Of a stretch of DNA of 64,000 nucleotides, positions 5,625-42,817 are shown piece by piece (the first letter of the stretch is position 1; every line of letters begins with the position of its first letter). This DNA is from an uncultured Gemmatimonadaceae bacterium (GTDB taxonomy: Bacteria > Gemmatimonadota > Gemmatimonadetes > Gemmatimonadales > GWC2-71-9). The stretch is from contig CAZRCT010000002.1 in NCBI GenBank assembly GCA_964598655.1, forward strand, positions 904-64,903, read 5' to 3'. Both the position numbers and the translations under genes were made by a program. A model generated the notes under the pieces. The model was not told the DNA's origin, ran no database searches, and saw only the letters and a program-made list of their open reading frames with translations.

Positions 5625-5639
5625 CGGAGACTGACACCC

Positions 5640-11838: not shown

Positions 11839-11874
11839 TCCCCCGCTCGCCTCCCCGGCCCGGAGCTTCCTCCC

Positions 11875-17334: not shown

Positions 17335-17353
17335 GCCGGGAAGCGCCCTTCGG

Positions 17354-23259: not shown

Positions 23260-23540
23260 GCCGTCCGGGGCCCGCCTGCCAAGGCCCCGGCGCGTGGCGG
23301 CGCCGCCACAACAGTGGAGCTGTCGGGAACACTCCATCGTCAGCTCCATCCCCGTGCCGCCACCCAAGTGCTTGTCCCACGGCCACTTCGCCGTGGCCCG
23401 GATTCCGGCCCCGGGCCGGTGACCCGGCGCACAGGTCGGCCCGGTCCATGCGTTGAGGAGGGCACTCCCCCGGGGGCCGCAGGGCCGGGTCCCACCGGGG
23501 GTCAGCCAGTACTCCCCTTTCCTCCCGTGAGGATCGCGAC

Positions 23541-24383: not shown

Positions 24384-24406
24384 GCGCACCCTGGTCGGGG
24401 CAGGAC

Positions 24407-24438
24407 CGCGGGGGCCTTCCACACGGGAGGCCCCCGCG
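24407..24438. terminator. Bidirectional terminator hairpin between the convergent lipoprotein gene and the FAD oxidase gene
   Basis: CGCGGGGGCCTTCC (24407-24420), loop ACAC, GGGAGGCCCCCGCG (24425-24438): a 14-bp stem including one G-U pair. Confidence 0.7.
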
Positions 24439-24442
24439 CTGC

Positions 24443-25576
24443 TTAGCGCCGGGGCAGGAACCGTGCGGGGGCGAAGGGCGCCAGGTCGAAGCCGGCGGAC
24501 TCGCCGCACGCGAGCCGTGCCAGGACTTCCCCGAGCGTCGGGGCGAACTTGAATCCGTGGCCGCTGCAGGCACTCGCCAGCAGGACGCGCGGCTCGTCGG
24601 GGACGGGCCCCAGCACGAAGTCGTGGTCGGGGGTGTTGGTGTAGAGGCAGGTCACGGCGTCGGCGGGGTCGGGCCCGAGACCGGCCAGGTGGCGCGCGGC
24701 CAGGTCGCGGATGTCGGCCCGTTCCCCGGCGGCGATGGTGCGCTCCACCGCGTCGGCATCGGTGAGCCGGCCCTCGTGGTGGTGCGCCACCTTCACGCCC
24801 GCGCCCTGGTCGGGGATGCCGTAGAAGTACCGCCCCGGCTCCCACTCCCAGAGGAAGACGGGCGCCGTGCCCGCCCGCCAGGTCTCCGCGTGGCGCGGCC
24901 GGAACCACCACATCACCTGCCGCTCCACGGCCAGCGGCACCGTGCCGCGCACCAGCCGGGGCATCCACGCGCCCGCCGCTAGGATCACCCGCTCCGCCTC
25001 GAGCGGGCCCGACGGCGTGGCGAGCCGGAGCACGCCGGGCTCGTTGCCGATCCCGGTGAGCGGGCACTCGGGGAGGATGGTGGCGCCGGCGGCGGCCGCG
25101 AGCCCGAGCGCGCCGGCGATGCACGCCTCGGGGTCGAGGATGCCCGCCAGCGGCTCGTGGAGGCCCTCGATGGCGTCCCCGACCTGGAACTGGGGGAAGC
25201 GGCGGCGGAGCTCCGCGGCGCGCAGCCGCTCGTGCGCCAGGCCATGGGCCCGGGCGCTCGCCTCGGCGCCGGCCACCAGCGTCCCCGCCGCGGGGCCCAG
25301 CATGAGGCCGCCGGTCTGCTCGAGCAGCGGCTGGCCCGTGTCGTGGGCCAGCGCCACCCAGCGGTCCCACGCATCCCGCACCAGCGGCACGTAGGCGGGC
25401 GACTCGTAGTATGCCTGACGGATGATCCGCGACCGGCCGTGACTCGAACCGTGGGCGTGGGGCGGCGCGAAGCGGTCGAGGCCCACCACCCGGAGCCCGC
25501 GGCGCGCCAGCGCGAGGAGGGCCTGGCTCCCGGTGGCGCCGAGGCCCACCACCGCGACGTCGTACGGGCGTGCCAC
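24443..25576 (-). CDS. FAD-dependent amine oxidase, monomeric sarcosine / N-methyltryptophan oxidase-like
   Basis: 377 aa with the dinucleotide fold YDVAVVGLGATGSQALLALARRG, then GSSHGRSRIIRQAY, typical of the SolA/MSOX family. Cys in SACSGHGFKF lies at the covalent-FAD position. Confidence 0.85.
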   Translation of the reverse strand: MARPYDVAVVGLGATGSQALLALARRGLRVVGLDRFAPPHAHGSSHGRSRIIRQAYYESPAYVPLVRDAWDRWVALAHDTGQPLLEQTGGLMLGPAAGTLVAGAEASARAHGLAHERLRAAELRRRFPQFQVGDAIEGLHEPLAGILDPEACIAGALGLAAAAGATILPECPLTGIGNEPGVLRLATPSGPLEAERVILAAGAWMPRLVRGTVPLAVERQVMWWFRPRHAETWRAGTAPVFLWEWEPGRYFYGIPDQGAGVKVAHHHEGRLTDADAVERTIAAGERADIRDLAARHLAGLGPDPADAVTCLYTNTPDHDFVLGPVPDEPRVLLASACSGHGFKFAPTLGEVLARLACGESAGFDLAPFAPARFLPRR

Positions 25577-25577
25577 G

Positions 25578-25919
25578 CTAGAGCCCCAGGTAGCGGTGGC
25601 GGTCCAGCAGGAAACGCTGCTCCTCCATGACCACCCGGAGCGGGATGCCCTGCTCCAGCTTCACGGCGACTTCACGCCCGTCGAGCCGGACCACCGTGCC
25701 GCGGACCGCCACCTCTTCCCCCCGGCGGAAGCGGATGGTGCCCGCCACCTCGTCGCCGACCTGAGGTGCCTCTGCCGTCCTGCCGAGGGCAAAGCGCATC
25801 CCCTTCTCGGAGACATCGATCACGTCGAAGTGATGGGATTGGACGTCAAGGCGCGGCCGGAGGCTGGTGGGATACGCCACCCGGTAGTACTCGCGGGAGT
25901 GCTGCCAGCCCATGGGCAC
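25578..25919 (-). CDS. Single-domain PilZ protein (c-di-GMP receptor motifs intact)
   Basis: 113 aa with RxxxR (REYYR), then DxSxxG (DVSEKG) 22 residues later. Confidence 0.8.
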   Translation of the reverse strand: MPMGWQHSREYYRVAYPTSLRPRLDVQSHHFDVIDVSEKGMRFALGRTAEAPQVGDEVAGTIRFRRGEEVAVRGTVVRLDGREVAVKLEQGIPLRVVMEEQRFLLDRHRYLGL

Positions 25920-26252
25920 CTACCAGAGGAGCCCGCTCCGCCGGAGGCCGGGACCGGCCGGCGCGGGGCTCGCGATGCGCTCCTGCCCAGCCTCGAGGTG
26001 GAAGGCGGCCTCGTCGCCGGTCACCCGGAGGACGCGGCCTTCCACCTCGACGGCGCGGTCGGCCGGGAAGTGAAGGGTGGCGCGCAGCACCTCGCCGATG
26101 GTGATCACGCGCTGGCCCGGGCGGGCCGTGCGGATCCGCATCCCCTCGGGGGAGAGGTCCACCACCTCGTAGGTGCCGAGGTCGGTCTCGAGCCGCGGGG
26201 CGGGCCGGCCGGCAAAGGAGAGGCGCGGGCGGGCGCGGCGGGCGTCTTCCAT
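25920..26252 (-). CDS. Single-domain PilZ protein, second copy
   Basis: 110 aa from the ATG at 26252 (MEDARRARPRLSF) with RxxxR (RARPR) and DxSxxG (DLSPEG) at the same 22-residue spacing. Its stop abuts the start of the next PilZ gene. Confidence 0.75.
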   Translation of the reverse strand: MEDARRARPRLSFAGRPAPRLETDLGTYEVVDLSPEGMRIRTARPGQRVITIGEVLRATLHFPADRAVEVEGRVLRVTGDEAAFHLEAGQERIASPAPAGPGLRRSGLLW

Positions 26253-27037
26253 CAGCGGGGCTCCGGGGCGTGCGGGTCGAGGCTGCGGGCGGTGTCGCGG
26301 GTGATCGCGGCACGGGTGTCGGGGGCCAGGTCCAGCAGGTCGAGACGGGCGCCCGGCGTCTCCGCCAGCCGCAGGGGCTGGCCACTCCCCAGAAGGAAAC
26401 GCGCCGGGCCCATGGTGGCAAGCAGCACGCCCAGGTGTTCCTCCGGCGGGCCCCACACCCAGCTGATGTCCCACCAGATCCGGGCCGCCTCCGCCGGGGT
26501 GCTGCCCCAGTGCACCTCCTCGATGAAGCCGCGCTCGGCATGCGTGATCACCAGCCGGAGGCGCGGATGCGCGCGGACCCAGGCGCGCACCATCCAGGGC
26601 GCCAGCTCCGGCGCCACGTCGAGGGGATGGCGCCCGCGCCCATCCTCGAGGCGCACCGCCGCCTGCACCGGCAACCCCGCCTCCGCGGCCGCGCCGAGGA
26701 AGCGGAGCATCTCACCGCCGACGGGGGCGAGCGCCAGGGGACCGGGGTCGGCGCGGACGGCCACGGCCCGGCGGTCCGCGGCTTCCTGGAGGTCGTCCTC
26801 CCAGTGGGGGAGGCCGGGGTGGATCACGGGGACCGGTCGGAAGCGCGGCTCGCGCGCGGCCAGCTCGTAGAGCCACGGGTTGCCCTCGCCCGGATCCTTC
26901 CAGAAGAGGCTCGGCAGGTGCGTCGCCCAGGCGGTGGTCACGCCCACGGCGTCCATGGCGCGGAGCACCGCGTCGGGACTCGTCCCGGGAATGCGCCGCC
27001 AGGGGTAGGCGCCGAGGAAGACGTTCACGTCGATCAT
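26252..27037 (-). CDS. Amidohydrolase_2-like TIM-barrel protein with a degenerate metal motif
   Basis: 261 aa from the ATG at 27037 (MIDVNVFLGAYPW). It is paralogous in layout to the upstream gene, but the first-strand HxH is replaced by NxF. The start overlaps the upstream stop (ATGA) and the stop overlaps the PilZ start (TGATG). Confidence 0.65.
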   Translation of the reverse strand: MIDVNVFLGAYPWRRIPGTSPDAVLRAMDAVGVTTAWATHLPSLFWKDPGEGNPWLYELAAREPRFRPVPVIHPGLPHWEDDLQEAADRRAVAVRADPGPLALAPVGGEMLRFLGAAAEAGLPVQAAVRLEDGRGRHPLDVAPELAPWMVRAWVRAHPRLRLVITHAERGFIEEVHWGSTPAEAARIWWDISWVWGPPEEHLGVLLATMGPARFLLGSGQPLRLAETPGARLDLLDLAPDTRAAITRDTARSLDPHAPEPR

Positions 27038-27828
27038 GCGAAGGCGCCCCCGGGAAAGATGCGCCGCGCGTTGCCGCTGGTGACGAGCGCCAGGTCCTCG
27101 GGGCCCAGCAGGCGGCCGAGGGCGCGCAGCTTGGCCCAGCCGGTGCACAGGGTCACGTCGCAGGCCCAGAGCAGGCGGCCGGCGCCCACGGCGCGGAGGG
27201 CGCCCTCGAGCATGCCCCCATCGGTGCCGCTGCCGGAGAGGTCCAGGAACACGTTGGGCACGTGGCGCGCGGCGCGGAGGGTGTGCAGCCAGTCGCCGCC
27301 GCCGCCGATGTGGGCCAGGATGAAGCTGACGGTGGGGTGGCGCCGCGCCAGCCGGCAGAGCTCCACCCCGTCGGACGCCTCCTGGCCGGGCCACTCGCGG
27401 CGGCGGTGCTGCCAGACGTGGTGCAGCACCGGGAAGCCGTGGCGGGCCGCCGCCTCACACACGGGGTCGAGCAGCGGGTCGTCCGCGCGGCGGCTGGCCG
27501 CCAGCTTCACGCCGATCATCCCCCGCCGCTGCCCCAGCTCGATCTCGGCCAGGGCGTGCGCGGTGTGGTTCGGGTTCACCGCGACGTAGCCGCGCACCTC
27601 GGCCGGGTGGGCCGCCTGCAGCTCCCGCATCCGCGCGTTGGCATGCCCGAGGTCGGCCGGCGAGGGGAAGTAGGTGGGGCTGGTGTGGCCCCAACTGCCG
27701 AGGATGGAGGCCACGTGGTGGGTGATCCCCATCGTCCGGCCGGCCGCGAGGCGCGCCTGGTTGCGGGCGTGCCAGTCCGCGTGGCCGGTGCGGTCGTGGT
27801 CGAAGTGGGCGTGGACATCGATCAGCAT
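27034..27828 (-). CDS. Amidohydrolase_2-family metal-dependent hydrolase
   Basis: 264 aa with an N-terminal MLIDVHAHFDH (HxH), internal His (VLHHVW, ILAHIGG) and a late Asp (WACD), consistent with the TIM-barrel amidohydrolase fold. Confidence 0.75.
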   Translation of the reverse strand: MLIDVHAHFDHDRTGHADWHARNQARLAAGRTMGITHHVASILGSWGHTSPTYFPSPADLGHANARMRELQAAHPAEVRGYVAVNPNHTAHALAEIELGQRRGMIGVKLAASRRADDPLLDPVCEAAARHGFPVLHHVWQHRRREWPGQEASDGVELCRLARRHPTVSFILAHIGGGGDWLHTLRAARHVPNVFLDLSGSGTDGGMLEGALRAVGAGRLLWACDVTLCTGWAKLRALGRLLGPEDLALVTSGNARRIFPGGAFA

Positions 27829-27873
27829 GCGGGAATCCTGCCGCCGGCCGGCGGCTTCGTCCAGTCCCGGGGG

Positions 27874-29031
27874 TCATTCCACGCGGGTGCCGTCCGCCAC
27901 CTGGTCCCCCGGGTAGCGGATGACTTCCTCCCCCGCGGTGAGCCCGCCGAGCACCTCCACCGCCGCGGCCCCGCGATGGCCCACCTCCACGGTCCGCCGC
28001 CGGGCGCGGCCGTCCCGCACCACGTAGAGGCACCAGGTGCTGTCCTGCCGGAACAGGGCGCTCACCGGCACCTGGAGCACGGCGGGCGCGCTCCAGACGA
28101 TGACGCGCACCTCCACCCGGAACCGGTCGCCGAGCGCCGCCGCGCCGCGGTCCAGGTCGAGGATCACCGGCACCCGCTGCTCCTCGACCCCCAGCGCGGA
28201 GATCTTGGTGAACCCCGAGGGCTCGACCCGGCGCACCCGCGCGGGGAGCGGCGCGCCCCCGCCCCAGGCCTCGATCCACGCGCTGTCGCCGGGCGCCAGG
28301 CGGGTGGCGTCGGTGCTCAGGTAGTCGGCCCGCACCTCGAGGCGGGCGGGGTCGCCCAGTTCGAGGATCGGGGCCCCGGCGGGGAGGACCCGAGCGCTGG
28401 CCTCGAGGACGCGGAGCACCTGCCCCGTGACCGGCGCATGCAGCGGGACGCGCGCCCCCCGCGGCGCGGTGCGGGCGCCGGTGAGCATCGCCTCCGCTTC
28501 CTCGCGCTCGTGTGCCGCGACCTGGGCGCGAAAGTCCGCCACCTCGAGCTCCTGCCGCCGCGCCACCAGGGCCAGCTCCGCGCGCTCCCGCCCCTCGGGG
28601 GCGATGAGCTCCGCCACGGCGAGGCTTTCCGCCCGGGCCCGGTCCCGCCCGGCCTGCTCCAGGGCGGCCCGGGCGGCCGTGACCTGGGCGCGCGCCACCC
28701 GCTCGGCATCGCGCGCGCGGGCCAGCCGGGCGCTGGCCTCGCCGCTGGTGCGTGGGTCGAGCGGCGCCGCGCCCACCCAGGCCACGATGGCGCCGGCGCG
28801 CACCGAGTCGCCGGCCCGCAGGTCCACCCGCTCGAGCGCGCCGGCGGCCGGCATGGCCACCACGTAGCGGTCGCGCACCTGGGTCTCGCCCTGCTCGTCG
28901 AGCGTCTCGCGGAGCGGCCCGCGGGTGACCTGCGCCGTCTCGACCGGGACGGGAGCCGGCCGGAGCACCCAGGCGAGCCCGAGCCCGGCCACGCCGAGGG
29001 CGGTAAGCCAGAGCACCGTGCGGCGTCGCAT
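27874..29031 (-). CDS. HlyD-family periplasmic adaptor (membrane fusion protein)
   Basis: 385 aa from the ATG at 29031 (MRRRTVLWLTALGVAGLGLAW), with an N-terminal anchor. It has a lipoyl-like domain (AGALERVDLRAGDSVRAGAIVAWV ... APVTGQVL), a long Ala/Arg/Glu coiled-coil and a C-terminal beta-barrel. The tracked ORF to 31035 is read-through over the permease gene. Confidence 0.85.
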   Translation of the reverse strand: MRRRTVLWLTALGVAGLGLAWVLRPAPVPVETAQVTRGPLRETLDEQGETQVRDRYVVAMPAAGALERVDLRAGDSVRAGAIVAWVGAAPLDPRTSGEASARLARARDAERVARAQVTAARAALEQAGRDRARAESLAVAELIAPEGRERAELALVARRQELEVADFRAQVAAHEREEAEAMLTGARTAPRGARVPLHAPVTGQVLRVLEASARVLPAGAPILELGDPARLEVRADYLSTDATRLAPGDSAWIEAWGGGAPLPARVRRVEPSGFTKISALGVEEQRVPVILDLDRGAAALGDRFRVEVRVIVWSAPAVLQVPVSALFRQDSTWCLYVVRDGRARRRTVEVGHRGAAAVEVLGGLTAGEEVIRYPGDQVADGTRVE

Positions 29032-29048
29032 GCACACCTCCCCGCGGG

Positions 29049-31424
29049 TCACTCCCGCGTCTTGAGCACCGCCACGAGATCGAGCCGGTGCACGCGCCGC
29101 CGCACCGTGGCCAGGGACACCACTGCGGCGCCCGCCAGCACCAGCACGGCGAACACGATCGTCCCGCCCCGCACCACCAGCGGGAGCCGGAACAGTTCCG
29201 ACGCGAACCGGCCCACGATCAGCTGGCAGAACCCATACCCCACCAGCAGCCCGAGCGGCACGGCCAGCGCCACGAGCAGGACCTGCTCGCCAAGCAGCAT
29301 GGCGGCCGCCTCCTGCCGGGTGAAGCCGAGCACGCGCAGGCTGGCGAGCTCCCGGGCGCGCTCGCCGAGGCTTACCTGGGCGCTGTTGAACACCACGCCG
29401 AACGCGATCACGCAGGCGAAGAGCACGGTGATGCCGATCGAGATCGCGAAGCTCTCGGCGATGGTGCGCTCGAAGCCCTCCCGCGCGGCCCGCCGGAGCA
29501 CCACGCCGGCGATGGCCGGCCGGCGCTTGAGGACCCCGTGCACGCCCGGGATCGCATCCGCGGCCACCCGGAGGTAGGCGCCGGTGAGCACCCGTTCCCC
29601 GGTCAGGCGGTCGAGGTCCGTGGGGCTCGCGTACGCGGTGAGCCCCAGCAACTCGTCCACGACCCCGCTCACCCGCAACATCGCCCGGCCGCGGCGGCCC
29701 TGCAGCACCTCCACCTCGACCAGGTCGCCGGGGACGACCGCCAGGCGGCTGGCCAGCGCACCCCCGAGCAGGAGCCCGCCAAACGGCGGGGCCACCGGGC
29801 GGCCCTCGGCATCCACCACCCGCCGCAGCGCCGCGTCCGGGGCGAGCTGCTGGAGCCCCGTGAGGCGGCTGCGGGCGCCGGCGCGCACGCGGACGGGCAC
29901 CGCGCGGGCGCCCTCGACCGCCAGCACGCCCGGCAGGCGCGCCAGCTCGCGCAGGACCGCGGGCGCGGCGGGCGTGGTGAACTGCACCGCCACATCCTCC
30001 CGCTGGATGCGATCGAAGACCACCACCTTCAGGTGATCCACCGCATCGAACGCGAAGCGGCTCACCACGCACAGACCGAGCGCCAGCGACAGCCCCACGA
30101 CGGCGAGCAGCGTCCGCCCGGGCCGGCGCTCCATGCCGCGGAGCACCGTGCGCGCGCCGAGGGGGAGGCGCGGCAGGAGGCCCGCGCGGTCGAGGGGACC
30201 GGGGCGATACCCGGGCGGGCCCTCGGGCCGCATCGCCTCCGCGGGGGGCAGGCGGAAGCTGCGCCGCACTGCGCCGAGAGCGCCGACCAGCGCGGCGAGC
30301 GCGGCGAGCAGCACCGCCCACACCACCGTGGCCCACTCCGGCTGCCAGGCCACGTCGGGGAACTGGTAGAAGCGGGCGTAGACCCCCGCGAGCTCGCGGG
30401 CAAACCAGAGCCCGAGCGGCACGCCGACCAGCGCCCCCGCAACCACCGGGGCGAGCGCGAGGCCGAGGTAGTGCCGGGCCACGGGCAACGCGCCGTAGCC
30501 GAACGCCTTGAGCACGCCGATCTGCTCGCGCTCCGTGGCCACGAGCCGCGCCAGCACGAGGTGCAGCAGGAACGCGGTGACGCCGAGGCAGATCGCCGGC
30601 AGCAGGACGCTGGTGACTTCCGTCTCCTCGACCTCGCCCGCGACGAAGCTGTGGGAGAGCTGGTCGGCGCGCCCGTACGCCCCCAGCCCGCCGTAGGGGG
30701 CGAGCAGGCGGTCGAGCGCGGCGAGGACCTCCGGCGCCCGCGCCCCGGGGCGGAGCGTCAGGGTGAGGTCGTTGAAGGCGCCGGTGAGGTCGAGCGCGGC
30801 GGCCAGCGCCGCGCGCGGCATCCACAGCACGCCGAAGCGCCGGTTGTCCGGGAAGATCTCGGCCCCCCCGCGGATCTCGTAGATGAACTCCGGCGAGATG
30901 GCCGTGCCGGCCAGGCGGAGCCACTGCCAGCGGCCGTGCAGCACCGCACCGAGGCTGTCGCCCACTCGGAGCCCGTTGGCCCGGGCAAATGCCGCACTCA
31001 CCAGCACCTCGCCCCGCCGGGCCGGGTCGGGCCACGCGCCGCTGCGGAGCACCGGCCGGTTGAGGCGCGGCGGTCCCGTGGCCGGCAGCGAGACCAGCCG
31101 GCCGGTGGCCGGCTCCGCGAGGCCGGGCACGTCGAGCAGCACGTCCGTCACCGCCCGGGTCTCCGCCACCTCGACGCCCGGCAGCGCCGCCACCCGCGCG
31201 CCGATCGCCTCGGGCGCCCGGCGGAGGGAGACGAACACGTCGGCAAACCCCTGGGCCGCGTAGTAGGCGGCCTGCCGGCCCCGGAGGTACCCGTGCATGC
31301 TGCGGAGCGTCACGAACAGCGCCACCCCGCTCGCCATCACCAACGTCACGGCGAGGAACTGGGCGCGCAGGCGTCGGAGGTCGCGCAGGAGCTTCCGGTC
31401 GAGGATCCGCATGCCGCTCACCAC
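29049..31424 (-). CDS. ABC transporter permease with two FtsX/MacB-type domains (YbbP-like)
   Basis: 791 aa. The N-terminus [26 protein letters not shown] is typical of FtsX-type permeases. The TM1, large loop, TM2-4 module is duplicated (second module around [22 protein letters not shown]). Confidence 0.88.
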
Positions 31425-32152
31425 GACAGCGCGCGCGGGTCGGCGCGGGTGGCGTTCCGGGTCACCTCGACGATCGCCCCGCTGCGGAGCCGGATCACGC
31501 GGTCCGCCATGGCGGCGATGGCCGCGTTGTGGGTGATCACCGCGGTGGTGGTGCCGAGCTGCTGGTTGGCGCGCGCCAGCACCTCGAGCACCAGGACGCC
31601 GGTCTCGTAGTCCAGCGCCCCGGTCGGCTCGTCACACAGCAGCACGTCGGGCCGCTTGGCCACGGCGCGGGCGATGGCCACCCGCTGCTGCTCGCCGCCC
31701 GAGAGCTGGGCGGGGAAGTGGTGCAGCCGGTCGCCGAGCCCCACCAGGCGGAGCGCCTCGGCCGGGTCCATCGGCGCCTGGGCGATCTCGGTCACCAGCG
31801 CGACGTTCTCGAGCGCCGTGAGGCTTGGCAGCAGGTTGTAGAACTGGAAGACGAAGCCGACGTGCTCGCGCCGGAAGCGGGTCAGGGCCGTGTCGTCATC
31901 GACGGACAGGTCGTGATCGAGGAAGCGCACCTTGCCGGCCGTGGGGACGTCGAGGCCGCCGAGGATGTTGAGCAAGGTGGACTTGCCGGAGCCGGAGGGG
32001 CCGAGGAGGACCACGAACTCGCCACGGTAGAGCTCGAGGTCCACGCCCCGCAGCGCGTGCACCTCCACCTCGCCAAGGCGGTAGACCTTGGCCAGCCCCT
32101 CGGCCCGGAACACGGCATCGCCGACTGCGATGGGCGCTGCCATGGTCCCCAA
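31418..32152 (-). CDS. ABC transporter ATP-binding protein (MacB/LolD/YbbA-type)
   Basis: Walker [11 protein letters not shown]-loop, signature [14 protein letters not shown], Walker [13 protein letters not shown] and H-loop ITHN. Confidence 0.93.
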
Positions 32153-32200
32153 GCTAGGCGCCGGGACGGCCCGCGGCCTGAGGGATTCGTGAAAGGACCT

Positions 32201-33367
32201 TCAGCGCGCCGCGGCAGCCCGGCAGGCGTCGTCGAGGATGCCGATGGCCCGGTCCACCGCCTCGAAATCGTGCGCCAGCGACGGGAAATTGTAGGCGCCG
32301 CGCTTCCAGAGGAGGCCGCGTTCCGCCGCCAGCCGGACCACCCGGGACCCCGCCTGGTCGTCGGCAAACCGGAGGCAGCTCATCTCGGCGATGCCGGCCA
32401 CGCCGGCGAGCGTGTCGGGGTGGCGTGGCACCAGTTCGGCCAGGCCCGCCATGAGCCGGGTCCCCACGCGCCGGAGGTGGGCCGGTACCTCGTCGCGCAC
32501 CAGCACGTCGAGCGTGGCGTGGGCCGCGGCGAAGCCCAGCAGCTCAGTGGCCAGCGTGGAGCTGATCCAGGTGCGGCGCGCCTGCTCCATGATGTCCCGC
32601 CGCCCGCCCACCGCGGAGAGGGCGAAGCCGTTGGCCAGCGCCTTGCCGAACACCACGAGGTCGGGCACGCAGTTCCAGCGTTCCACCGCGCCGCCGGGCG
32701 CCACGCGGAAGCCGGTCTTGATCTCGTCGAAGACGAGCACGGCGCCGGCGCGGGTGGCCTCCTCGCGCAGCATCAGCAGCCACTCGGGCGGCGGGGCGCG
32801 CTCGATCACGGGTTCCACCACGATGGCGGCGAGCCGGTCGCCGGCGGCGCGGATGGCGTCGCGGCCGCGCGCCGCGTCGCCGAAGGGGATCTCGGCCGAG
32901 AGGCCGGTGATGGCCGCCGGGACGCCGGGGGTGCCCGGGGCCTGGGACCAGTCGAGCCACCCGTGGTAGCCGCAGCGGAGGACGAAGTCGCGGCCCGTGT
33001 GGGCCCGCGCCAGGCGCACGGCGGCGGCCACCGCCTCCGCGCCCGTCTTGAGGAATCGGGTCCGCTCGAGCCACGGCATCATGGATGCCAGGCGCTCGGC
33101 CAGCCGCTCCTCGCTCTCCGGCGCCAGCGGGCCTACCACCCCGGCCTCGATGGCCTCCAGCGCGGCCGCCGTGACCGCCGGATGCGCGTAGCCGAGGGAG
33201 ACCGCCCCGAGCGCCATGATGAAGTCGAGGTAGCGGCGCCCCTCGGCATCCCACACCTCCGCGCCGGCGGCCCGCGCCAGGCGGACCGGCAGGCCCCGCG
33301 GCGCGCCCGTGCCGAAGAGGGCGTCCGGGCGCTTGCTGCCGGTGGAGGTGAAGCCGGGGACCCTCAT
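32201..33367 (-). CDS. Class-III PLP aminotransferase (glutamate-1-semialdehyde aminomutase-like)
   Basis: 388 aa from the ATG at 33367 (MRVPGFTSTGSKRP). The sequence pattern is typical of the GSA-AT-like subfamily (YLDFIMALGAVSLGYAHP, FLKTGAEA, VFDEIKTGFR with the PLP Lys). The start overlaps the upstream stop (ATGA). Confidence 0.85.
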   Translation of the reverse strand: MRVPGFTSTGSKRPDALFGTGAPRGLPVRLARAAGAEVWDAEGRRYLDFIMALGAVSLGYAHPAVTAAALEAIEAGVVGPLAPESEERLAERLASMMPWLERTRFLKTGAEAVAAAVRLARAHTGRDFVLRCGYHGWLDWSQAPGTPGVPAAITGLSAEIPFGDAARGRDAIRAAGDRLAAIVVEPVIERAPPPEWLLMLREEATRAGAVLVFDEIKTGFRVAPGGAVERWNCVPDLVVFGKALANGFALSAVGGRRDIMEQARRTWISSTLATELLGFAAAHATLDVLVRDEVPAHLRRVGTRLMAGLAELVPRHPDTLAGVAGIAEMSCLRFADDQAGSRVVRLAAERGLLWKRGAYNFPSLAHDFEAVDRAIGILDDACRAAAAR

Positions 33368-36108
33368 CGGAGGAGCAGCCTCCCGAGGCGCGCGGGGTCG
33401 TGGCGGTCGCCGCGGAGGTACACCCAGCCCCCGCCACCGGTCCAGACGAGCTGGCCCGCGCGGCGGAGCCGGCCGGGGCGCATCTCGTTCACCACAACAT
33501 CGAACTTCGGCGGCTCCGCCGCCACCGTAGGCGGCCAGCCCGGGGTGGTGAGCCGGAGGGTCACCTGGTAGCCGTCGGCTGTGGCCTGCCAGCGGCCGGC
33601 GGCCTGGCCCTCGCGGGCGGCGGTGCCGGCCACCGGGTGCACCGTCACCGCGTCGCTCCGCGGATCGGGGACGGCGAGCCACCCGGCGAGCGCCTCTCCT
33701 TCCGGGGCGAGGTACACCTGGACGCCGTCGGCGTGGATGAGGTCTGGCTCGTTGTCGAGGCGGAGCGGCGGCGCGTCCGGCGCGCGGAAGGTGACGTCCG
33801 CCTTCCGCACCCGCACCGCCGCGTACACCGCCTCCTCGTCCCAGCCCAGGTGCACCTCGGCCGAGAACTCCCCGGGCCCCGCGTATGGGGTCTCGCTCCG
33901 GCGGTACTGGTCGTCGTGGTCGAGCACGATCACCGGGGTCGGCGGGAAGCCGTCGAGCGTGCCGTCGAGCGCCGGCGGCCGGTGCAGGTGCTCCACCACC
34001 GCCTCGGGTGGCACCCAGCGTGCCGGGCCCACCGGCGTGGGGATGTCCTCGAGGGCGGCGGAGAGGAGGTTGCGCTGCGGGCCGCGCAGCGTGACCCGGC
34101 CGCCGGCGTCCTCCACCTCCCAGCCGTCACTGGCCAGGCGGTGGGTGGTGGCGGCGGCGCCCTGCACCACGATCTCGCCCGGCGTGAAGCTGGCGGAGGT
34201 CACGGCGCCCGCGTCCCAGCCGAGGACGGTGGCGAACCGCACGAACCGTCCGCGCTGGCGCCGGAGCAGGAAGGGGCGTGGCCCGGTCTCGCCGGGGCGG
34301 CCCGGGCCGGTGGCGCGCAGGAGCTCCCCGGCCCCATCGAAGATGCCGGTGAGGCGGTGGTCGTCCACCGTGGCCTCCCACGCGACGGGCCCCGGCCCGG
34401 CGGGCACGAAGCGCTCGGCCCCGGTCGCGAACTCATCGGCGAGCTCCGCCGGTTCCCAGCGTCCCGGCGTGGTGACGCGCACCTCCCCGAGCGGGTGCCA
34501 CGGCAGCTCCACGAGCTGCTCCTGCTCCGCCGCGACCTCCAGCACCTCCACGAGCTGCGTGGCGCCGGCCACCACGGTCCGGGTGCAGCCGGCGTAGCTG
34601 CCCCGGGCCCAGGCCCAGCGCGGCCCGGCGTCGAAGTTCTCGCAGCGCGCGCTGCCCCCGCGCTGCGAACGGCCGTCGAGCCGGGGGGCGTTGTGGGCGA
34701 GGGTGGCGCGATACCAGAAGAGGTCGCGCGTCAGGTAGGAACCGGTGCCGGGATCCGCCAGCCAGTGCACACCGCCCGCGTGAAGCGTGAGGTGCAGGCG
34801 ATCGGGATGGCCATGACCGCCGCTGTCAGCGCCGCAGTCGAGGCTCGCGTACGTGTCGCCGAGGCGGAGGACGGCCAGCCCCTCCTCGGTCAGCAGCGTG
34901 CTGCCGGGGAGGGCGCCCTCACCCGCGGGCAGCGCCGGAGCCATCGTGAGGAGCATCCACCACGAGAGGCCGGTGCGGTCACGGGCGGCGGGCGCGGGGA
35001 GCCCCGCCTCCCCGAGGTAGGAGTCGAAGGTCTCCGCCGGCGGCGCCGGCAGCGCATAGAGGTGGCGGAGCCAGGCCGCGAGCTCACCCGCCGGCTTCAC
35101 GTGGCCGGCGCGGAGCAGCCCGCCCAGCCCGTGCTCCCAGAGCTCGAGATACATGGGTTGCGCCAGCGAGACGCCGAAGCGGGCGTCCTTCCGCGCCGGG
35201 AAGGTCCCGTCCGGCAGCGCCGAGTGGATGGGCGCCGAGAGCGCGAGCGCGAGGCGCCTGGCGCCTTCCGCCTCCTCGAAGAGGTCCACGCCGGCCAGCC
35301 GCGCCCAGCCGGCGCCGATGAGCAGGCCCTGCAGCGCGAAGAGGTGATAGTTCTCCCCCTCGTACCACATCCCGTCCGTGCCGAAGCCGTCCGCGAGCGC
35401 GCCCGCCAGCCCGCGCGGGCCCTCGAGCGCGCGACGGGCCAGGTCCTCGTCCTCGAACCAGGCGGCCGCGGCCGCGAGCGCGGCGTTGTGCCACACCTGC
35501 CGGTTGGAGAATCCCTCGTCGAACTCGCCGATCAGGTTGGCGGCCTCGTCGGCCAGCGTGTTGACCGCCTCGAGGGCGTCCTCGTCGAGGACGTTGGCCT
35601 CCCGCAGCAGCCACGCGGCGGTGAGGTAGCGGGTCAGCCAGACCGACTCGAGGTAGGTGGAGAAGAAGAGCCGCGAGGGGCCGAGCACGTTGTCGGCGTT
35701 GGGGAACCCGGGATAGCGCGCGGCGTACTCCACCACCATCGTGGCGGCCCAGTCCACCAGCGTGTCGTCCCCGGCCAGCAGCCCGGCGGCGGAGGCGGAC
35801 ACCACCTGCTCGCCCAGCCAGAGGTGCATCCGCCAGGCCCACCAGCCGTCGTGCCGGCCGCCGGTGGCCACGGCGCCACACCGCGGGCAGGCGTAGCGGC
35901 CGGGGCTGCGCGGGTCGAAGCGCAGCGGCGCGCCGTCCGCGGGGCAGGCGCCGCCGTCGGCGGAGAGCATCCCCTTCACCGCCGGGATGGCCGGCTGGCG
36001 TGTCGCCACGGCCCGGCCTTCCCGCACCAGCCGCTCGAGCAGGCGGGTCAGGTCCGCGGAGGCCTCGACCTCGGCGCGGCGCGCCTCCAGTTCTTCCGCC
36101 GTCAGCAT
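33364..36108 (-). CDS. Heparinase II/III-like protein (alginate-lyase-type alpha/alpha toroid + heparinase II/III beta domain + CBM9/DOMON-like C-terminus), no signal peptide
   Basis: 914 aa. The toroid region contains NRQVWHNAAL and WYEGENYHLFAL. The beta-sandwich contains GGHGHPDRLHLTLH ... LADPGTGSY ... YRATLAHNAPRLDG. The C-terminal ~200 aa resemble CBM9-like modules (SAEVHLGWDEEAVYAAVRVRK, IHADGVQVYL). The N-terminus is hydrophilic (MLTAEELEARRAEVE) and contains C-x20-CxxC. Confidence 0.72.
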   Translation of the reverse strand: MLTAEELEARRAEVEASADLTRLLERLVREGRAVATRQPAIPAVKGMLSADGGACPADGAPLRFDPRSPGRYACPRCGAVATGGRHDGWWAWRMHLWLGEQVVSASAAGLLAGDDTLVDWAATMVVEYAARYPGFPNADNVLGPSRLFFSTYLESVWLTRYLTAAWLLREANVLDEDALEAVNTLADEAANLIGEFDEGFSNRQVWHNAALAAAAAWFEDEDLARRALEGPRGLAGALADGFGTDGMWYEGENYHLFALQGLLIGAGWARLAGVDLFEEAEGARRLALALSAPIHSALPDGTFPARKDARFGVSLAQPMYLELWEHGLGGLLRAGHVKPAGELAAWLRHLYALPAPPAETFDSYLGEAGLPAPAARDRTGLSWWMLLTMAPALPAGEGALPGSTLLTEEGLAVLRLGDTYASLDCGADSGGHGHPDRLHLTLHAGGVHWLADPGTGSYLTRDLFWYRATLAHNAPRLDGRSQRGGSARCENFDAGPRWAWARGSYAGCTRTVVAGATQLVEVLEVAAEQEQLVELPWHPLGEVRVTTPGRWEPAELADEFATGAERFVPAGPGPVAWEATVDDHRLTGIFDGAGELLRATGPGRPGETGPRPFLLRRQRGRFVRFATVLGWDAGAVTSASFTPGEIVVQGAAATTHRLASDGWEVEDAGGRVTLRGPQRNLLSAALEDIPTPVGPARWVPPEAVVEHLHRPPALDGTLDGFPPTPVIVLDHDDQYRRSETPYAGPGEFSAEVHLGWDEEAVYAAVRVRKADVTFRAPDAPPLRLDNEPDLIHADGVQVYLAPEGEALAGWLAVPDPRSDAVTVHPVAGTAAREGQAAGRWQATADGYQVTLRLTTPGWPPTVAAEPPKFDVVVNEMRPGRLRRAGQLVWTGGGGWVYLRGDRHDPARLGRLLLR

Positions 36109-37139
36109 CGTTCCACTCCCGTGGCCGACCAGCCGGCCTCGAGCACGGTGGTCCCAGCGTCCCGTGCCGCGGCGACCCCCGCCGCGCGCTCACCGCCCAT
36201 GACGAAGAACATGCAGCCGCCAGCCCCCGCGCCGGCGGCCTTCCCGCCCAGCGCGCCGGCGGCGGCCATGGCGCGCTCCAGCGCGGCCATCTCCGCGGTG
36301 CACATCCCCGCGTCGAGCGCCTGCTGGCATCGCCAGTTCTCGCTGAGGAGTGCGGCCACCCGCGCCAGGTCCGCGGCGAGGAGCGCCTCCCGCATCCGGG
36401 CCGCGACGTCCACCATGGCGCGCAGAGCCCCCGTCACGCCGGCCTCGCCGCCCTCGTACGCGCCCATGACGCGCGCGATCGTCTCGCCTGACACGCGCGA
36501 GCGGCCGGTGTAGCAGATCACGGTGCGCCGCGCCAGCTCGGCCAGGAAGGCGCCGTCCAGCGCGAGGCGGGTGGCCCGCACGCCGGCCTCCCCGAACTCG
36601 AGGAACTGGAACCCGCCGAGGGCCGCGGCATACTGGTCCTGCCGGCCGCCGGCCATGCCCGCCTCCACGAGTTCCAGGTGGCAGGCCTGCGCCGCGATCT
36701 CGGCGGGGTCGAGGTCGTCGCCGCGATGCGGGGCCAGCGCCGCCACCAGCGCCACGTCGAGCGCGCCCGAGCTGCCGAGGCCGCCCCCGGCCGGCACGGA
36801 CGAGCGGGTGCGGAGCGTGCCCGGCCCCGGCGGGAACATCCGCACCGCCGCGCGATGCAGGTCCAGCACGCCCGCCGGGCGGAGGTCGGCGGGCGTGCGG
36901 ATCATCACCGCCTCGTTGAGGTCCTCGGCGCGCAGCAGCAGCCCCTCGCGGGCGGGCGCGAACTCCGCGCTCACGCGCAGCGTCAGTGCGGCATTCACCA
37001 CGGCGCCGCCTTCCCGGCTCGCGAACGGCGGCACGTCGGTCCACCCGCCGGCGAAGTCGAGCCGCACCGGCGCCGTGGCGCGCGACACCGGCGGCAGCAC
37101 CCGCGGCGACGGGACGGCGGTCATGGCCTCACGTGCCAC
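36102..37139 (-). CDS. GHMP-family sugar kinase (fucokinase / heptose-kinase-like)
   Basis: 345 aa with APVRLDFAGGWTDVPPFASREGGAVVNAAL (fucokinase/HddA-type motif I), the GHMP motif II PAGGGLGSSGALDVALV and motif III GKAAGAGAGGCMFF. Confidence 0.8.
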   Translation of the reverse strand: MAREAMTAVPSPRVLPPVSRATAPVRLDFAGGWTDVPPFASREGGAVVNAALTLRVSAEFAPAREGLLLRAEDLNEAVMIRTPADLRPAGVLDLHRAAVRMFPPGPGTLRTRSSVPAGGGLGSSGALDVALVAALAPHRGDDLDPAEIAAQACHLELVEAGMAGGRQDQYAAALGGFQFLEFGEAGVRATRLALDGAFLAELARRTVICYTGRSRVSGETIARVMGAYEGGEAGVTGALRAMVDVAARMREALLAADLARVAALLSENWRCQQALDAGMCTAEMAALERAMAAAGALGGKAAGAGAGGCMFFVMGGERAAGVAAARDAGTTVLEAGWSATGVERC

Positions 37140-38545
37140 CGGCTCACCGTGGCCAGTTCACCGCGGAGACCCAACTCCACGCCCTGCACCCGGCGGTTCA
37201 TACCCTGCAGCCCCCGTGCGTGATAGATGATGGTCACCGGCACGCTGTCCGCGATGAAGCGGAGCACGGCGGCCAGCCCCGGCGGGGCCCGGAGGCCCGA
37301 CAGCTCCGCGAGCGGGGCAAGATAGCCGAGCCCGAGGTCGCCGGGAGTGCCGAGGACGGCGGCCTCGAAGTCGGGCGCCGGGCCGTACACGCGGGCGAGG
37401 AAGGCGGAGAGCTCGAGCTGGCGGATGCGGACCACCATGCCGTGGCGCGCGAGCTGCGCCTGCAGCATCTGCTCCATGGCGGCCTCGCCCGAGCCCACGG
37501 TCAGCAGCTCGAAGGCCGGCGGCGGCCCCGCCGCCACCCCGGGGCGCGGCGCCACCGGCAGCACGGGAGCCGGCACCCCGGGCGGGACCGGCGTGTCGCC
37601 GGGCGTGCCGAAGCCGTACGTGAAGCCGTCGACGATGGCCCGGCGGTCGAGCGCGGCCGCCACGGCGGCGCGGGCGCCGGGCGCGTTGAAGGGCGGGCGC
37701 CGCGCGTTGAAGACGATGCCCACGGAGAAGAGCAGCGGGTAGTCCACCGCGCGGAGGTCCGGGCGCTCGGCCACGAACCGCGCGTGCGCGGGCTGGATGC
37801 CGGCGAAGTCGAGCTCGCCCGCCGCGAGGGCGGCGAGCTTGGTCATCGGCTCGTCCACCACCGCGATGACCAGGCGCTCCAGCGCCGGGGGGCCGCCCAG
37901 GCTGGCCGGGAAGTCCGGGTTCCGCGCGAAGACCCAGCGCCGGTTGGGCTCGTGGGCCACGAAGCGGAACGGGCCGTTCCCGACCGGGGCCTGCTGCCAC
38001 GCCGCCTGACGGAGCCGTTCCCGCGGGATGGTGTCCAGCAGGTGGCGCGGCAGGATGGCCAGGTCGGTGAGCACGTCCGGCACCCGGCCGGGCGCCGTGG
38101 CGAAGTCGAGCACCAGCGTGGAGTCGTCGGGCGCGGTGGCGCGGAGGCCCGTGAGGTCGGTGAGGCGCGGGTACCCGATGCCGATGTCCTGTGCCGTGGT
38201 GAGCGTCCACGCGGCATCGCGGGCGGTGGTGGGCGCGCCGTCGTGCCAGCGCACCTCGGTGGTCACCCGCATGGTGAGCCGCCGGCCATCGGCGGACCAG
38301 TCCCAGCGACGGGCCAGGTAGGGCGCCACCTGCATGGTGCTGTCGTACTGCACCAGCGTGGTGAGCAGCACGTAGCGCTGCACCTGCCGCGCCAGCGGAT
38401 GCACCGTGAAGAGCGGGTTGATGCTCTGCAGGTCCGCGCCCGAGGCAAAGAGCACCGTGTCCCCACGGCGCGCCGCCAGGTCCCCGCAGCCCGCGAGCGG
38501 GGAGAGTCCTGCCAGCACCACTCCGAGCCGCCACGCGGTCCGCAT
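37121..38545 (-). CDS. ABC transporter substrate-binding lipoprotein, family 5 (Opp/Dpp-type)
   Basis: 474 aa from the ATG at 38545 with a lipobox (LSPLAGCGD). It shows the family-5 pattern (DLQSINPL, RWHDGAPTTARD, GNGPFRF, and the LRAVDYP region). Confidence 0.85.
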   Translation of the reverse strand: MRTAWRLGVVLAGLSPLAGCGDLAARRGDTVLFASGADLQSINPLFTVHPLARQVQRYVLLTTLVQYDSTMQVAPYLARRWDWSADGRRLTMRVTTEVRWHDGAPTTARDAAWTLTTAQDIGIGYPRLTDLTGLRATAPDDSTLVLDFATAPGRVPDVLTDLAILPRHLLDTIPRERLRQAAWQQAPVGNGPFRFVAHEPNRRWVFARNPDFPASLGGPPALERLVIAVVDEPMTKLAALAAGELDFAGIQPAHARFVAERPDLRAVDYPLLFSVGIVFNARRPPFNAPGARAAVAAALDRRAIVDGFTYGFGTPGDTPVPPGVPAPVLPVAPRPGVAAGPPPAFELLTVGSGEAAMEQMLQAQLARHGMVVRIRQLELSAFLARVYGPAPDFEAAVLGTPGDLGLGYLAPLAELSGLRAPPGLAAVLRFIADSVPVTIIYHARGLQGMNRRVQGVELGLRGELATVSRWHVRP

Positions 38546-38626
38546 GCCCGAAAGGTGGGCCCCGGCCCGCCGAACGCAACGCCGGGCGGCTGGCGGCGGG
38601 TCCGCGGCCCGGGCAGATTCCCGGCC

Positions 38627-40427: not shown

Positions 40428-40438
40428 CCCGGGACGCG

Positions 40439-42813: not shown

Positions 42814-42817
42814 CGGC

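Follow-up and report, generated by a model that had tools for sequence, protein, structure and literature searches.

The window analyzed here is a 64,000-nt stretch of contig CAZRCT010000002.1 (positions 904 to 64,903) from a member of the Gemmatimonadota, and because its G+C content lies at 72–77%, genes were called by combining frame analysis of third-position G+C (GC3) with the reading of open reading frames (ORFs). This revealed an array of twelve co-directional genes on the minus strand, running from 38545 to 24443, which encode, in array order, a substrate-binding protein (SBP, 37121–38545), a GHMP kinase (36102–37139, or from the ATG at 37124), a heparinase-like protein resembling lyases of polysaccharide lyase family 17 (PL17; 33364–36108), an aminotransferase (32201–33367), an ABC ATPase (31418–32152, with a likely ATG at 32143), an FtsX permease (29049–31424), a periplasmic adaptor of the membrane fusion protein type (27874–29052, or from the ATG at 29031), amidohydrolase 1 (27034–27828), amidohydrolase 2 (26252–27037), PilZ1 (25920–26252), PilZ2 (25578–25919) and, last, an oxidase (24443–25576). 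Every domain label was backed by Pfam and NCBIfam, namely SBP_bac_5, GHMP kinase, Hepar_II_III_C with Alginate_lyase, Aminotran_3, ABC_tran, FtsX in two stretches, HlyD_3/RND_mfp, Amidohydro_2, PilZ in both PilZ proteins and DAO. The first-pass annotation had listed the same twelve genes with their domains, overlaps and gaps; its domain assignments were confirmed, and all of its junctions were reproduced exactly. The comparisons described below provide good support for reading the array as a composite, consisting of a conserved core, a clade-specific tail and an optional exporter cassette.

All eleven junctions measure 48 nt or less and follow, from the SBP gene to the oxidase gene, as a 19 nt overlap, a 7 nt overlap, an ATGA overlap, a 48 nt gap, a 7 nt overlap, a 17 nt gap, a 45 nt gap, an ATGA overlap, a TGATG overlap and spacings of 0 and 1 nt. 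The 19 nt overlap between the SBP and GHMP kinase genes is probably an over-long start call, and beginning the kinase at ATG 37124 produces an ATGA overlap with the SBP stop codon, as for the called genes of relatives. Additionally, ATG 32143 is the most likely start of the ABC ATPase, and an adaptor read from GTG 29052 is joined to the permease by a GTGA overlap instead of the 17 nt gap. Both cassette junctions were spanned by DNA contigs of an independent activated-sludge run (X1; pieces 27494–30347 and 31949–35378), which shows that the arrangement is no chimera of binning or assembly, and the synteny kept in dozens of species shows that chance does not explain how tightly the core is packed. 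Scanning for terminators returned three terminator-like sites compared with 1.7 ± 1.5 in shuffled sequences (two inside array genes, one downstream and none in the spacers), hence no excess of internal terminators as far as a scan blind to Rho-dependent sites can tell. The folds predicted for the spacers were ordinary. An Rfam scan of the window gave zero matches, and hence no known riboswitch or leader.

The SBP gene, the first of the conserved core, encodes 474 aa with a lipobox (LAGC) and a strong Pfam match (SBP_bac_5, 1.5e-52). Every NCBIfam equivalog match of this protein lay far below cut-off, and its nearest solved relatives bind opines (AgaA, AccA), nickel (NikA), peptides or mannosides. 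Divergent from the SBP gene, we observed two permease genes of the Dpp/Opp type on the plus strand, encoding permease 1 (38627–39589; supported by ORF translation, tblastn matches in relatives and BPD_transp_1 on its counterparts) and permease 2 (39582–40427; Pfam BPD_transp_1 and OppC_N). The parts of a Dpp/Opp-type importer present are thus a family-5 binding protein and two permeases; no protein combining ABC_tran with oligo_HPY, i.e., an importer ATPase, was detected among about 49 of the 53 called window genes that were scanned, and in the distant related locus L088 OppD/F-type ATPases lie within the cluster. Past the permeases, the window continues with an acyl-CoA ligase-like AMP-binding enzyme (40439–42049, plus strand), a glycerophosphodiester phosphodiesterase (GDPD; 42046–42813, plus strand), a RidA-family protein (Pfam Ribonuc_L-PSP; 42818–43255, minus strand) and then a cytoplasmic GH38 alpha-mannosidase resembling MngB (43252–45921, minus strand), all detected with Pfam. 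The ligase-like protein scored 500 bits against an NCBIfam long-chain-fatty-acid-CoA ligase subfamily (cut-off 476), and both this gene and that of the GDPD were limited to loci of the window's clade and are accessory. The GH38 enzyme carries the N, middle and C domains of its family; it matched the NCBIfam mannosylglycerate hydrolase model below cut-off (7e-87) and PDB entry 2wyh at 4.5e-61, and its N-terminus (MARPVVHLIPH) has by eye no signal peptide, unlike the SBP with its lipobox. The divergent permeases, the mannosidase and the absence of importer ATPases had been overlooked in the first-pass annotation. As a separate observation, the GDPD and RidA genes converge with 4 nt between their stop codons (42813–42818), and the N-terminus of the RidA protein is signal-peptide-like (MMRRLVTACLLLLAFPLAAQQ).

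When one genome per species was scanned with the lyase, at least 515 stretches encoding it were returned, and the 80 best of these loci all belonged to metagenome-assembled genomes (MAGs) of Gemmatimonadota. The lyase has hundreds of full-length homologs, of which all the named ones are from Gemmatimonadota; a search seeded with a homolog of 35% identity likewise returned only Gemmatimonadota names, and neither search pointed to the locus outside this phylum. The exact lyase sequence occurred mainly in activated-sludge metagenomes. The window proteins were placed on 84 loci by tblastn and then counted in 51 loci with at least 5 kb upstream, 54 loci with at least 7 kb downstream and 34 fully covered loci. 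The SBP, the GHMP kinase and both permeases were each found in 50 of the 51 loci, the aminotransferase in all 54 and each amidohydrolase in 51 of the 54, while the GH38 gene lay within 10 kb in 25 of the 34. Of about 80 species-level loci, essentially all contain the core. Eight core genes keep their order and orientation in more than 50 species at 50–89% identity, and the co-occurrence that the first-pass annotation had listed as a check, for the trio of heparinase-like protein, GHMP kinase and aminotransferase, and for the amidohydrolase pair, was observed in nearly every related locus.

This conservation extends, in partly rearranged form, to remote relatives. A locus at 35% lyase identity encodes a protein resembling dihydrodipicolinate synthase (DHDPS), the GHMP kinase, GH38, two permeases, the SBP, the lyase, the aminotransferase and two amidohydrolases, together with OppD/F-type ATPases and a GntR regulator; loci at 32–36% identity encode the lyase and the SBP along with GH38 and the permeases and, on contigs that extend far enough, also the aminotransferase and amidohydrolases; and at 28% identity the order amidohydrolase, amidohydrolase, lyase is kept. 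The GH38 gene adjoins the permeases in the distant loci L088, L089 and L090. The conserved heart of the locus is thus the importer, the lyase, the aminotransferase, the amidohydrolase pair, GH38 and usually the GHMP kinase. In a sister clade, the amidohydrolases are followed by a DHDPS-like protein, a 380-aa protein, an enolase of the o-succinylbenzoate synthase (OSBS)/N-acylamino-acid-racemase type (222 bits versus a cut-off of 200), GH38 and an M19 peptidase. In the sister clade, the aminotransferase and amidohydrolase 1 genes are also separated by a small ORF with a very acidic product (L002, 13953–14237; L086, 13980–14165), which recurs in the spacers of L029, L033, L034, L036, L047, L048 and others; it begins with MS(S/P)RKPT(V/I)DDLDD(V/I)DDEDG, and a TAGATT directly behind the aminotransferase stop codon precedes it. 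In some MAGs, two copies of the whole locus were observed on separate contigs (L029 and L033 in JBDTUV01; L077 and L082 in CAWHZQ01).

The exporter genes form a cassette (27874–32143, minus strand) made up of the ATPase (31418–32143), a double-FtsX permease of about 790 aa (29049–31424) and the periplasmic adaptor (27874–29052), bearing ABC_tran, two FtsX stretches and HlyD_3, respectively. In ATPase type, FtsX permease and RND_mfp-type adaptor it is similar to the type VII ABC exporters MacAB and YbbAP; unlike these, it stays below every equivalog cut-off (196–205 bits for the ATPase against the LolD, YbbA and MacB models; 91.6 versus 94.9 bits for RND_mfp), is a facultative insert in a catabolic locus and carries an upstream motif of its own. 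No TolC-like outer-membrane partner was found among the window genes scanned. The cassette occurred in only 7 of the 70 species loci covering the junction, always at the same site. The closest relative (L005) shares 88–89% DNA identity across 13.9 kb on the upstream side and 3.4 kb on the downstream side and lacks window positions 27829–32227, having 26 nt there instead; its aminotransferase stop codon overlaps the start of amidohydrolase 1 as TGATG. The exporter is therefore an optional insert, placed precisely between the stop codon of the aminotransferase gene and the start codon of amidohydrolase 1, and the earlier view of it as an integral part of the operon had to be abandoned. On a neighbor-joining tree of the lyase, cassette bearers were scattered, with cassette-free sisters adjacent. 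The cassette permease has many homologs at 54–65% identity, some of them named Thermoanaerobaculia or Acidobacteriota, and homologs of the whole three-gene module (57–65% identity) were found in unrelated contexts, of which three were readable and one was named Thermoanaerobaculia: one adjoins a 2-oxoacid dehydrogenase complex, one lies among toxin–antitoxin and radical-SAM genes, and one precedes genes for a gamma-glutamyltranspeptidase and a multicopper oxidase. The gene for amidohydrolase 1 does not follow the best non-self match (65%). The coexistence of uptake and export within one operon is thus largely a by-product of cassette insertion.

The tail of the array is likewise restricted in distribution. 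PilZ1 and PilZ2 are single-domain proteins that exceed the Pfam PilZ cut-off of 22.5 bits (34.9 and 47.6 bits), and they exhibit the motifs R6xxxR10 and D33-L-S-P-E-G (PilZ1) and R9xxxR13 and D-V-S-E-K-G (PilZ2); RxxxR and D-x-S(C)-x-x-G were kept in nearly all of the 21 and 31 homologs of PilZ1 and PilZ2, respectively. In Pfam score and motifs (RxxxR/DxSxxG), the pair is similar to single-domain PilZ receptors of cyclic diguanylate (c-di-GMP), and it may constitute a predicted c-di-GMP input to the locus. Unlike known PilZ receptors, the pair is a tandem whose translation is coupled to that of the Amidohydro_2 and amine oxidase genes in a sugar-processing locus, for which no described counterpart was found in the literature. 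The oxidase scored 407.4 bits against the NCBIfam N-methyl-L-tryptophan oxidase equivalog (NF008425, cut-off 257), in addition to Pfam DAO, and matched PDB entries 7exs (4e-74) and 2uzz (3e-59). It shares with monomeric sarcosine oxidase and SolA the equivalog score, the GxGxxG motif and the Cys of ACSGHGFKF, which sits at what we take to be the position of the covalent flavin link; unlike the SolA-type oxidases, it is placed beside a PilZ pair in a glycoside locus. The oxidase was present in 19 of 54 loci, every time with the PilZ pair; two PilZ genes were found in 18 of the 54 and at least one in 26, and the pair occurred both with and without the exporter. Elsewhere, the PilZ-PilZ-oxidase segment is swapped for DHDPS-like and enolase-type genes, and the tail is clade-specific. 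Of the c-di-GMP gating proposed in the first-pass annotation, the motif basis stands in both PilZ proteins. The modules of the array do not all recur together in other genomes; the core does (above 94%), in contrast to the exporter, the oxidase and the PilZ pair.

The signature protein of the locus is the lyase (914 aa), which has a Cys/His knuckle (C55, H72, C74, C77) at its N-terminus and a CBM9-like domain at its C-terminus, with an alpha/alpha toroid and a beta-sandwich in between. It exceeded the Pfam cut-offs of Alginate_lyase (31.4 versus 22.2) and Hepar_II_III_C (47.4 versus 24) and scored 34 bits against the NCBIfam oligoalginate lyase equivalog, whose cut-off is 1400 bits. A family profile built from 47 members and matched against the PDB retrieved PL17 lyases (4e-31 to 4e-21) and, at the C-terminus, CBM9 (9e-4). 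The AlphaFold2 model (predicted local distance difference test, pLDDT, 92.7; predicted TM-score, pTM, 0.92) gave the same picture in Foldseek, where the top ten matches were all PL17 (E about 1e-24, target TM-score 0.70–0.74) and the C-terminus matched CBM9 (TM-score 0.72); after PL17 came other lyases of the same fold and, at rank 12, human dermatan sulfate epimerase 1.

Eight residues, N202, R203, Y254, H432, H434, D452, Y458 and H472, were invariant in the 47 sequences, down to 26% identity. Among these, H432, H434, D452 and H472 align with the cluster H413, H415, D433 and H464 of Alg17c, which is presumably a metal site. In alignments of hidden Markov models (HMMs), N202, Y254 and Y458 correspond to Asn201, Tyr258 and Tyr450 of Alg17c, where Tyr258 acts as the acid, Tyr450 as the base and Asn201 as a neutralizing residue (PMC4765187). 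The second neutralizing residue of Alg17c, His202, is not kept and is aligned with the family's invariant R203, which could still neutralize a carboxylate; at the equivalent position of Smlt2602, the H208F change shifts substrate specificity. By eye, the N-terminus (MLTAEELEARR) has no signal peptide. Together, these observations support a predicted cytoplasmic, probably exolytic, uronate lyase; since the same fold also houses an epimerase, fold and catalytic residues do not amount to proof of lyase activity.

The characterized PL17 enzymes (Alg17c of Saccharophagus degradans, 4nei/4ojz; the Zobellia AlyA3 type, 7bjt) share with the window lyase the two-domain fold, the equivalents of Asn201, Tyr258 and Tyr450 and the GHGH/D/H cluster. 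In contrast to them, the window lyase adds the N-terminal knuckle and the CBM9-like domain and has Arg for His202, and it is accompanied by an aminotransferase and Amidohydro_2 proteins in place of a reductase of 4-deoxy-L-erythro-5-hexoseulose uronate (DEH), KdgK and KdgA. A more distant fold relative, from another lyase family, is Atu3025 of Agrobacterium tumefaciens (PL15; 3a0o, 3afl). Systems of the Atu3025 type import oligosaccharides through a binding protein and then cleave them by cytoplasmic exolytic beta-elimination, which is the same logic as that proposed below. Unlike the Atu3025 system, the window locus has no canonical downstream uronate pathway, adds a GH38 mannosidase, a GHMP kinase, an aminotransferase and PilZ proteins, and relies on an importer of the family-5 (Dpp/Opp) type with its ATPases outside the locus.

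The remaining core enzymes were assigned in the same way. The GHMP kinase matched Pfam GHMP_kinases_N and GHMP_kinases_C, i.e., superfamily membership, and stayed below the equivalog level of both HddA (139.9 versus 600 bits) and fucokinase (110.5 versus 721); its PDB matches 4n3o and 4usk (about 1e-37) place it nearest to the HddA/WcbL/fucokinase branch, whose members phosphorylate manno- or fuco-configured sugars at the anomeric position. The aminotransferase is a class-III pyridoxal-phosphate enzyme (Pfam Aminotran_3, 2.6e-48) resembling glutamate-1-semialdehyde (GSA) aminomutase. Its best NCBIfam matches, GntE and GSA aminomutase, were all below cut-off; PDB matches at about 1e-43 comprised GSA aminomutases and sugar C-6' aminotransferases of gentamicin biosynthesis, and its relatives include the C-6' aminotransferases of both gentamicin and neomycin biosynthesis. 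Amidohydrolase 1 is of the ACMSD/LigI type (Pfam Amidohydro_2, 3e-20) with the HxH motif present, and its profile matched ACMSD and gamma-resorcylate decarboxylases in the PDB remotely, at about 1e-7. Amidohydrolase 2 had no Pfam match of its own and lacks the N-terminal HxH motif; the two families are remote paralogs (hhalign probability 76%, E = 2.4e-5), with H6, H8, H173 and D224 conserved in amidohydrolase 1 and N5 and F7 in amidohydrolase 2. No DEH reductase, kinase for 2-keto-3-deoxygluconate (KDG) or aldolase was found in the locus.

We next considered how the array might be transcribed. The spacer between the aminotransferase and ABC ATPase genes (32144–32203, minus strand) reads TGAAG (with the aminotransferase stop codon inside), N4, CTTCA, a TCAG further on, about 21 nt, TAGCTT (32156–32151), 7 nt and ATG 32143. 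In an alignment of the spacers of all eight cassette-bearing loci, the TGAAG, TTCA, TCA and TA(G/C)CTTG blocks were invariant and the rest varied, and the box TAGCTT (TACCTT in L026) stood 6–7 nt before the ATG in the seven loci showing that ATG. TGAAG-N4-CTTCA forms a palindrome and TTCAC-N6-(G)TTCAG a direct repeat, which look like an operator beside a -10 box and suggest promoter or operator function; homologous exporters that lie in unrelated contexts have no such element before them. An exact TTCAC-N7-TTCAG search of the loci had used the wrong spacing, and the alignment gave the real pattern. Similarly, the 45 nt spacer (27829–27873, minus strand) holds a -10-like CAGGAT (27840–27835) 6 nt before the amidohydrolase 1 ATG, and CAGATT or TAGATT was observed 5–8 nt before this start in many loci, whether the cassette is present or not; the fold of this spacer is ordinary (z = -0.57). 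The 81 nt divergent region (38546–38626) has promoter-like boxes in both directions, with TTGCGT (38579–38574), 16 nt, CACCTT (38557–38552), 6 nt and ATG towards the SBP gene and CAGATT (38614–38619), 7 nt and ATG 38627 towards permease 1. Across 32 loci, (C/T)ACCTT or TAnnnT preceded the SBP start by 5–7 nt in most cases, as did TACATT, CACATT or CAGATT before the permease start.

Comparable boxes precede the GH38 gene (TAGCAT, 7 nt, ATG), the GNAT gene (TATCAT, 7 nt, ATG) and the SAT gene (TATGTT, 5 nt, ATG), and a (T/C)AnnnT box stands 5–7 nt before many first genes (starts at 45921, 38627, 38545, 32143, 27828, 22929 and 16189). First genes with this box show no Shine–Dalgarno sequence, which suggests that leaderless mRNAs are widespread in the lineage. 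With leaderless transcripts, a spacer of 45–48 nt is long enough for a promoter, and transcription probably proceeds from three or more promoters, before the SBP, ABC ATPase and amidohydrolase 1 genes; with no evident internal terminator, read-through may occur. The first-pass annotation had named internal promoters as grounds for giving up the single unit, and this applies in part, given the conserved motif of the 48 nt gap and the CAGATT-like box of the 45 nt gap, both of them candidate promoters. A sigma-70 consensus scan returned no promoters, the consensus being uninformative for this lineage, and the strict pattern TANNNT-N6-RTG gave 2 matches in the window versus 3.95 expected, i.e., no enrichment. 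Because the -10-like boxes are degenerate (CAnnTT or TAnnnT), it is conservation between species, and not a consensus, that carries the promoter argument. In sludge metatranscriptomes we found only short pieces, located within the lyase, permease 1 and a convergent 280-aa gene downstream of the array. A further run labeled 'METAGENOMIC RNA-Seq' (X14) covered spacers and genes alike at a flat depth of about 4–5x on both strands (window 23000–41000) and behaves like DNA, not like a transcriptome. In the relative L019 (about 13300–13550), the spacer between the aminotransferase and amidohydrolase 1 genes contains about 120 nt of AT-rich sequence (CGCAGATTAACACAGATTATCGCAGATTAC...), tandemly duplicated along with the first amidohydrolase 1 codons.

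These features can be combined into a model of uptake and breakdown. The periplasmic SBP and the two Dpp-type permeases would import a small acidic alpha-mannosylated glycoside, powered by ATPases that would be encoded elsewhere in this lineage; in the cytoplasm, the PL17-type lyase would cut at the uronic acid by beta-elimination and the GH38 enzyme would remove alpha-mannose. The HddA/fucokinase-like GHMP kinase could then phosphorylate the released sugar, probably at the anomeric position, and the aminotransferase and Amidohydro_2 pair could handle the unsaturated or keto-uronate product in place of the reductase–kinase–aldolase route. In the window's clade, the tail would oxidize a secondary amine and provide c-di-GMP input, which might adjust the pathway to the biofilm state, and the exporter would be an independently regulated passenger that is dispensable for the pathway. 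A uronate-type substrate, which the first-pass annotation had already suggested, remains plausible because the lyase is of the PL17 type with intact catalytic residues; the accompanying idea of polymer processing and export finds no support, as the locus has no polymerase or glycosyltransferase and neither the lyase nor the mannosidase has a signal peptide. Gene content, synteny counts, cassette boundaries, the lyase fold with its catalytic residues and the PilZ motifs are shown by the data; from these we infer the substrate class, the reaction order, the promoter activity and the c-di-GMP control, and the whole model, i.e., the architecture together with this chemistry for a uronate-containing, mannosylated compound, is one that we find moderately probable.

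Several points weigh against this model. No single substrate stands out for the locus, and the nearest solved relatives of the SBP suggest opines, nickel and peptides as candidate ligands besides mannosides. The enolase and M19 peptidase of the sister clade, as well as RidA and the amine oxidase of the window's clade, point to nitrogen chemistry, which a plain oligouronate would not need. The lyase is only 16–18% identical to characterized PL17 enzymes and falls far short of the oligoalginate lyase cut-off, and its fold is shared with human dermatan sulfate epimerase 1; with no DEH reductase, KDG kinase or aldolase in the locus, the fate assigned to the uronate product is conjecture. The placement of the cassette at one same site in eight species could reflect a functional link after all. 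The candidate promoters are suggested by motif conservation, with nothing returned by the sigma-70 scan and no enrichment of the strict pattern, and no junction-spanning RNA was present among the sludge metatranscriptome pieces.

The main rival explanation starts from the same nitrogen-handling genes and holds that the locus breaks down a nitrogen-containing conjugate of the opine, Amadori or glycopeptide type, with the PL17-like protein acting on a non-classical substrate and the central chemistry being done by the aminotransferase, RidA and the oxidase or, in the sister clade, by a racemase and peptidases. The opine, nickel and peptide binders among the closest solved relatives of the SBP (AgaA, AccA, NikA) fit this explanation, as do the sarcosine/N-methyltryptophan oxidase type of the oxidase, the imine deaminase RidA adjoining GH38, and the DHDPS-like protein, racemase-type enolase and M19, M20 or M1 peptidases of the sister clade. 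The GDPD phosphodiesterase of the window's clade can be added to this list; AccF of agrocinopine catabolism is likewise of the GDPD type. Nevertheless, the PL17 residues for uronate beta-elimination are invariant across the lyase family and GH38 and a sugar-type GHMP kinase are conserved partners, whereas the nitrogen-handling genes vary by clade and are therefore not the conserved heart of the locus. We consider this explanation doubtful on balance. An extension of the uptake-and-breakdown model proposes a nitrogen-linked uronate route of the Gemmatimonadota's own for acidic glycosides, in which the lyase product, an unsaturated or 4-deoxy-5-keto uronate, would be transaminated by the GSA aminomutase-like enzyme rather than reduced, a heteromeric Amidohydro_2 pair would act next and, in one clade, flux would respond to c-di-GMP through two dedicated PilZ adaptors. 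Although rather improbable in this full form, it would, if true, represent a nitrogen-linked uronate pathway without described counterpart and a case of second-messenger control of a catabolic pathway.

The proposal that all twelve genes form one c-di-GMP-gated machine, modifying and exporting or recycling an amino-sugar or uronate polymer, would bring the locus close to alginate, cellulose or Pel systems, where a lyase works together with a PilZ receptor and an adaptor-like protein. The tight co-directional packing without terminator excess, the presence of a PL-type lyase, two motif-intact PilZ proteins and a periplasmic adaptor in one array and the constant site of the cassette in eight species all agree with it. 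However, genes for a glycosyltransferase, a polymerase or an outer-membrane component are missing from the locus, the lyase carries no signal peptide, and the importer is conserved while the closest relative and 63 of the 70 species loci lack the exporter; moreover, a conserved motif of its own precedes the exporter, homologs of which lie in unrelated contexts, and the PilZ pair occurs regardless of the exporter. We regard a single machine as very unlikely, and a biosynthetic or secretory reading was rejected on the same contrast between a conserved importer and a non-conserved exporter. Finally, the idea that the core has no functional unity and only reflects unrelated genes packed tightly in a compact high-GC genome, to which stop/start overlaps elsewhere in the window (in the hydrogenase and hyp genes) and internal promoter-like motifs lend some substance, is barely credible given the eight-gene order kept in more than 50 species, the set kept, partly rearranged, at 28–36% identity and the identical 7 nt kinase/lyase overlap in five independent loci (L001, L002, L004, L085 and L086).

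Returning to the uptake-and-breakdown model, alginate oligomers, xanthan side-chain fragments, head groups of glycosyl-inositol-phosphoceramides, mannosylglycerate and agrocinopine-like phosphodiesters were weighed as substrates, and none is claimed. The first-pass annotation had stated that the gene combination matched no known pathway, in agreement with the literature, where we found no description of the locus or of this combination. New here, on a plan of binding-protein import and cytoplasmic lyase, are the divergent lyase subfamily, the unexplained downstream chemistry and the unusual PilZ pair. Gemmatimonadota are abundant in soils and activated sludge and their physiology is poorly known. 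The substrate would show in which carbon source the phylum specializes; a fate not yet described for uronates released by lyases could come to light as well, and with the PilZ pair one can test whether c-di-GMP acts on catabolism, as opposed to polymer synthesis or motility. For genome annotation, gaps of 45–48 nt are not to be read as 'no promoter' in an apparently leaderless organism, and a tight array can hide a facultative cassette.

Downstream of the array, a GC-rich hairpin (24407–24438) lies between the oxidase gene and the convergent 280-aa gene. The terminator proposed at this place is real in terms of folding (-38.7 kcal/mol, z = -3.6; none of 200 shuffles folded equally well) and has no U tract. 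Metatranscriptome contigs of the convergent gene, from two runs of one sample, stop at 24406, the foot of the hairpin, and the hairpin is likely a terminator serving both directions. A rho termination factor gene lies within the window (55679–56929, plus strand), which is relevant since the hairpins here lack U tracts. The convergent gene itself (23541–24383, plus strand) encodes a protein with a signal-peptide-like N-terminus and no Pfam match; it is missing from the closest relative and is the best-represented part of the region in the sludge metatranscriptomes.

Further from the array, an alpha/beta-hydrolase fused to a membrane domain of the VTT/DedA type (19452–21992, plus strand; 846 aa) and the GNAT gene are conserved neighbors of the locus in the window's clade. 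The window additionally encodes a complete [NiFe] uptake-type hydrogenase operon (4488–14332, plus strand) with small and large subunits, cytochrome b, a HycI-type protease, the maturation proteins HypB, HypF, HypD and a HypE-like protein, and a 98-aa ORF (11875–12171). Between these regions, an Acetyltransf_5 gene is followed by an acyltransferase gene (16459–18103, plus strand), a pair that we take to be OlsB-like and OlsA-like and that resembles a pair for ornithine or amino-lipid synthesis.

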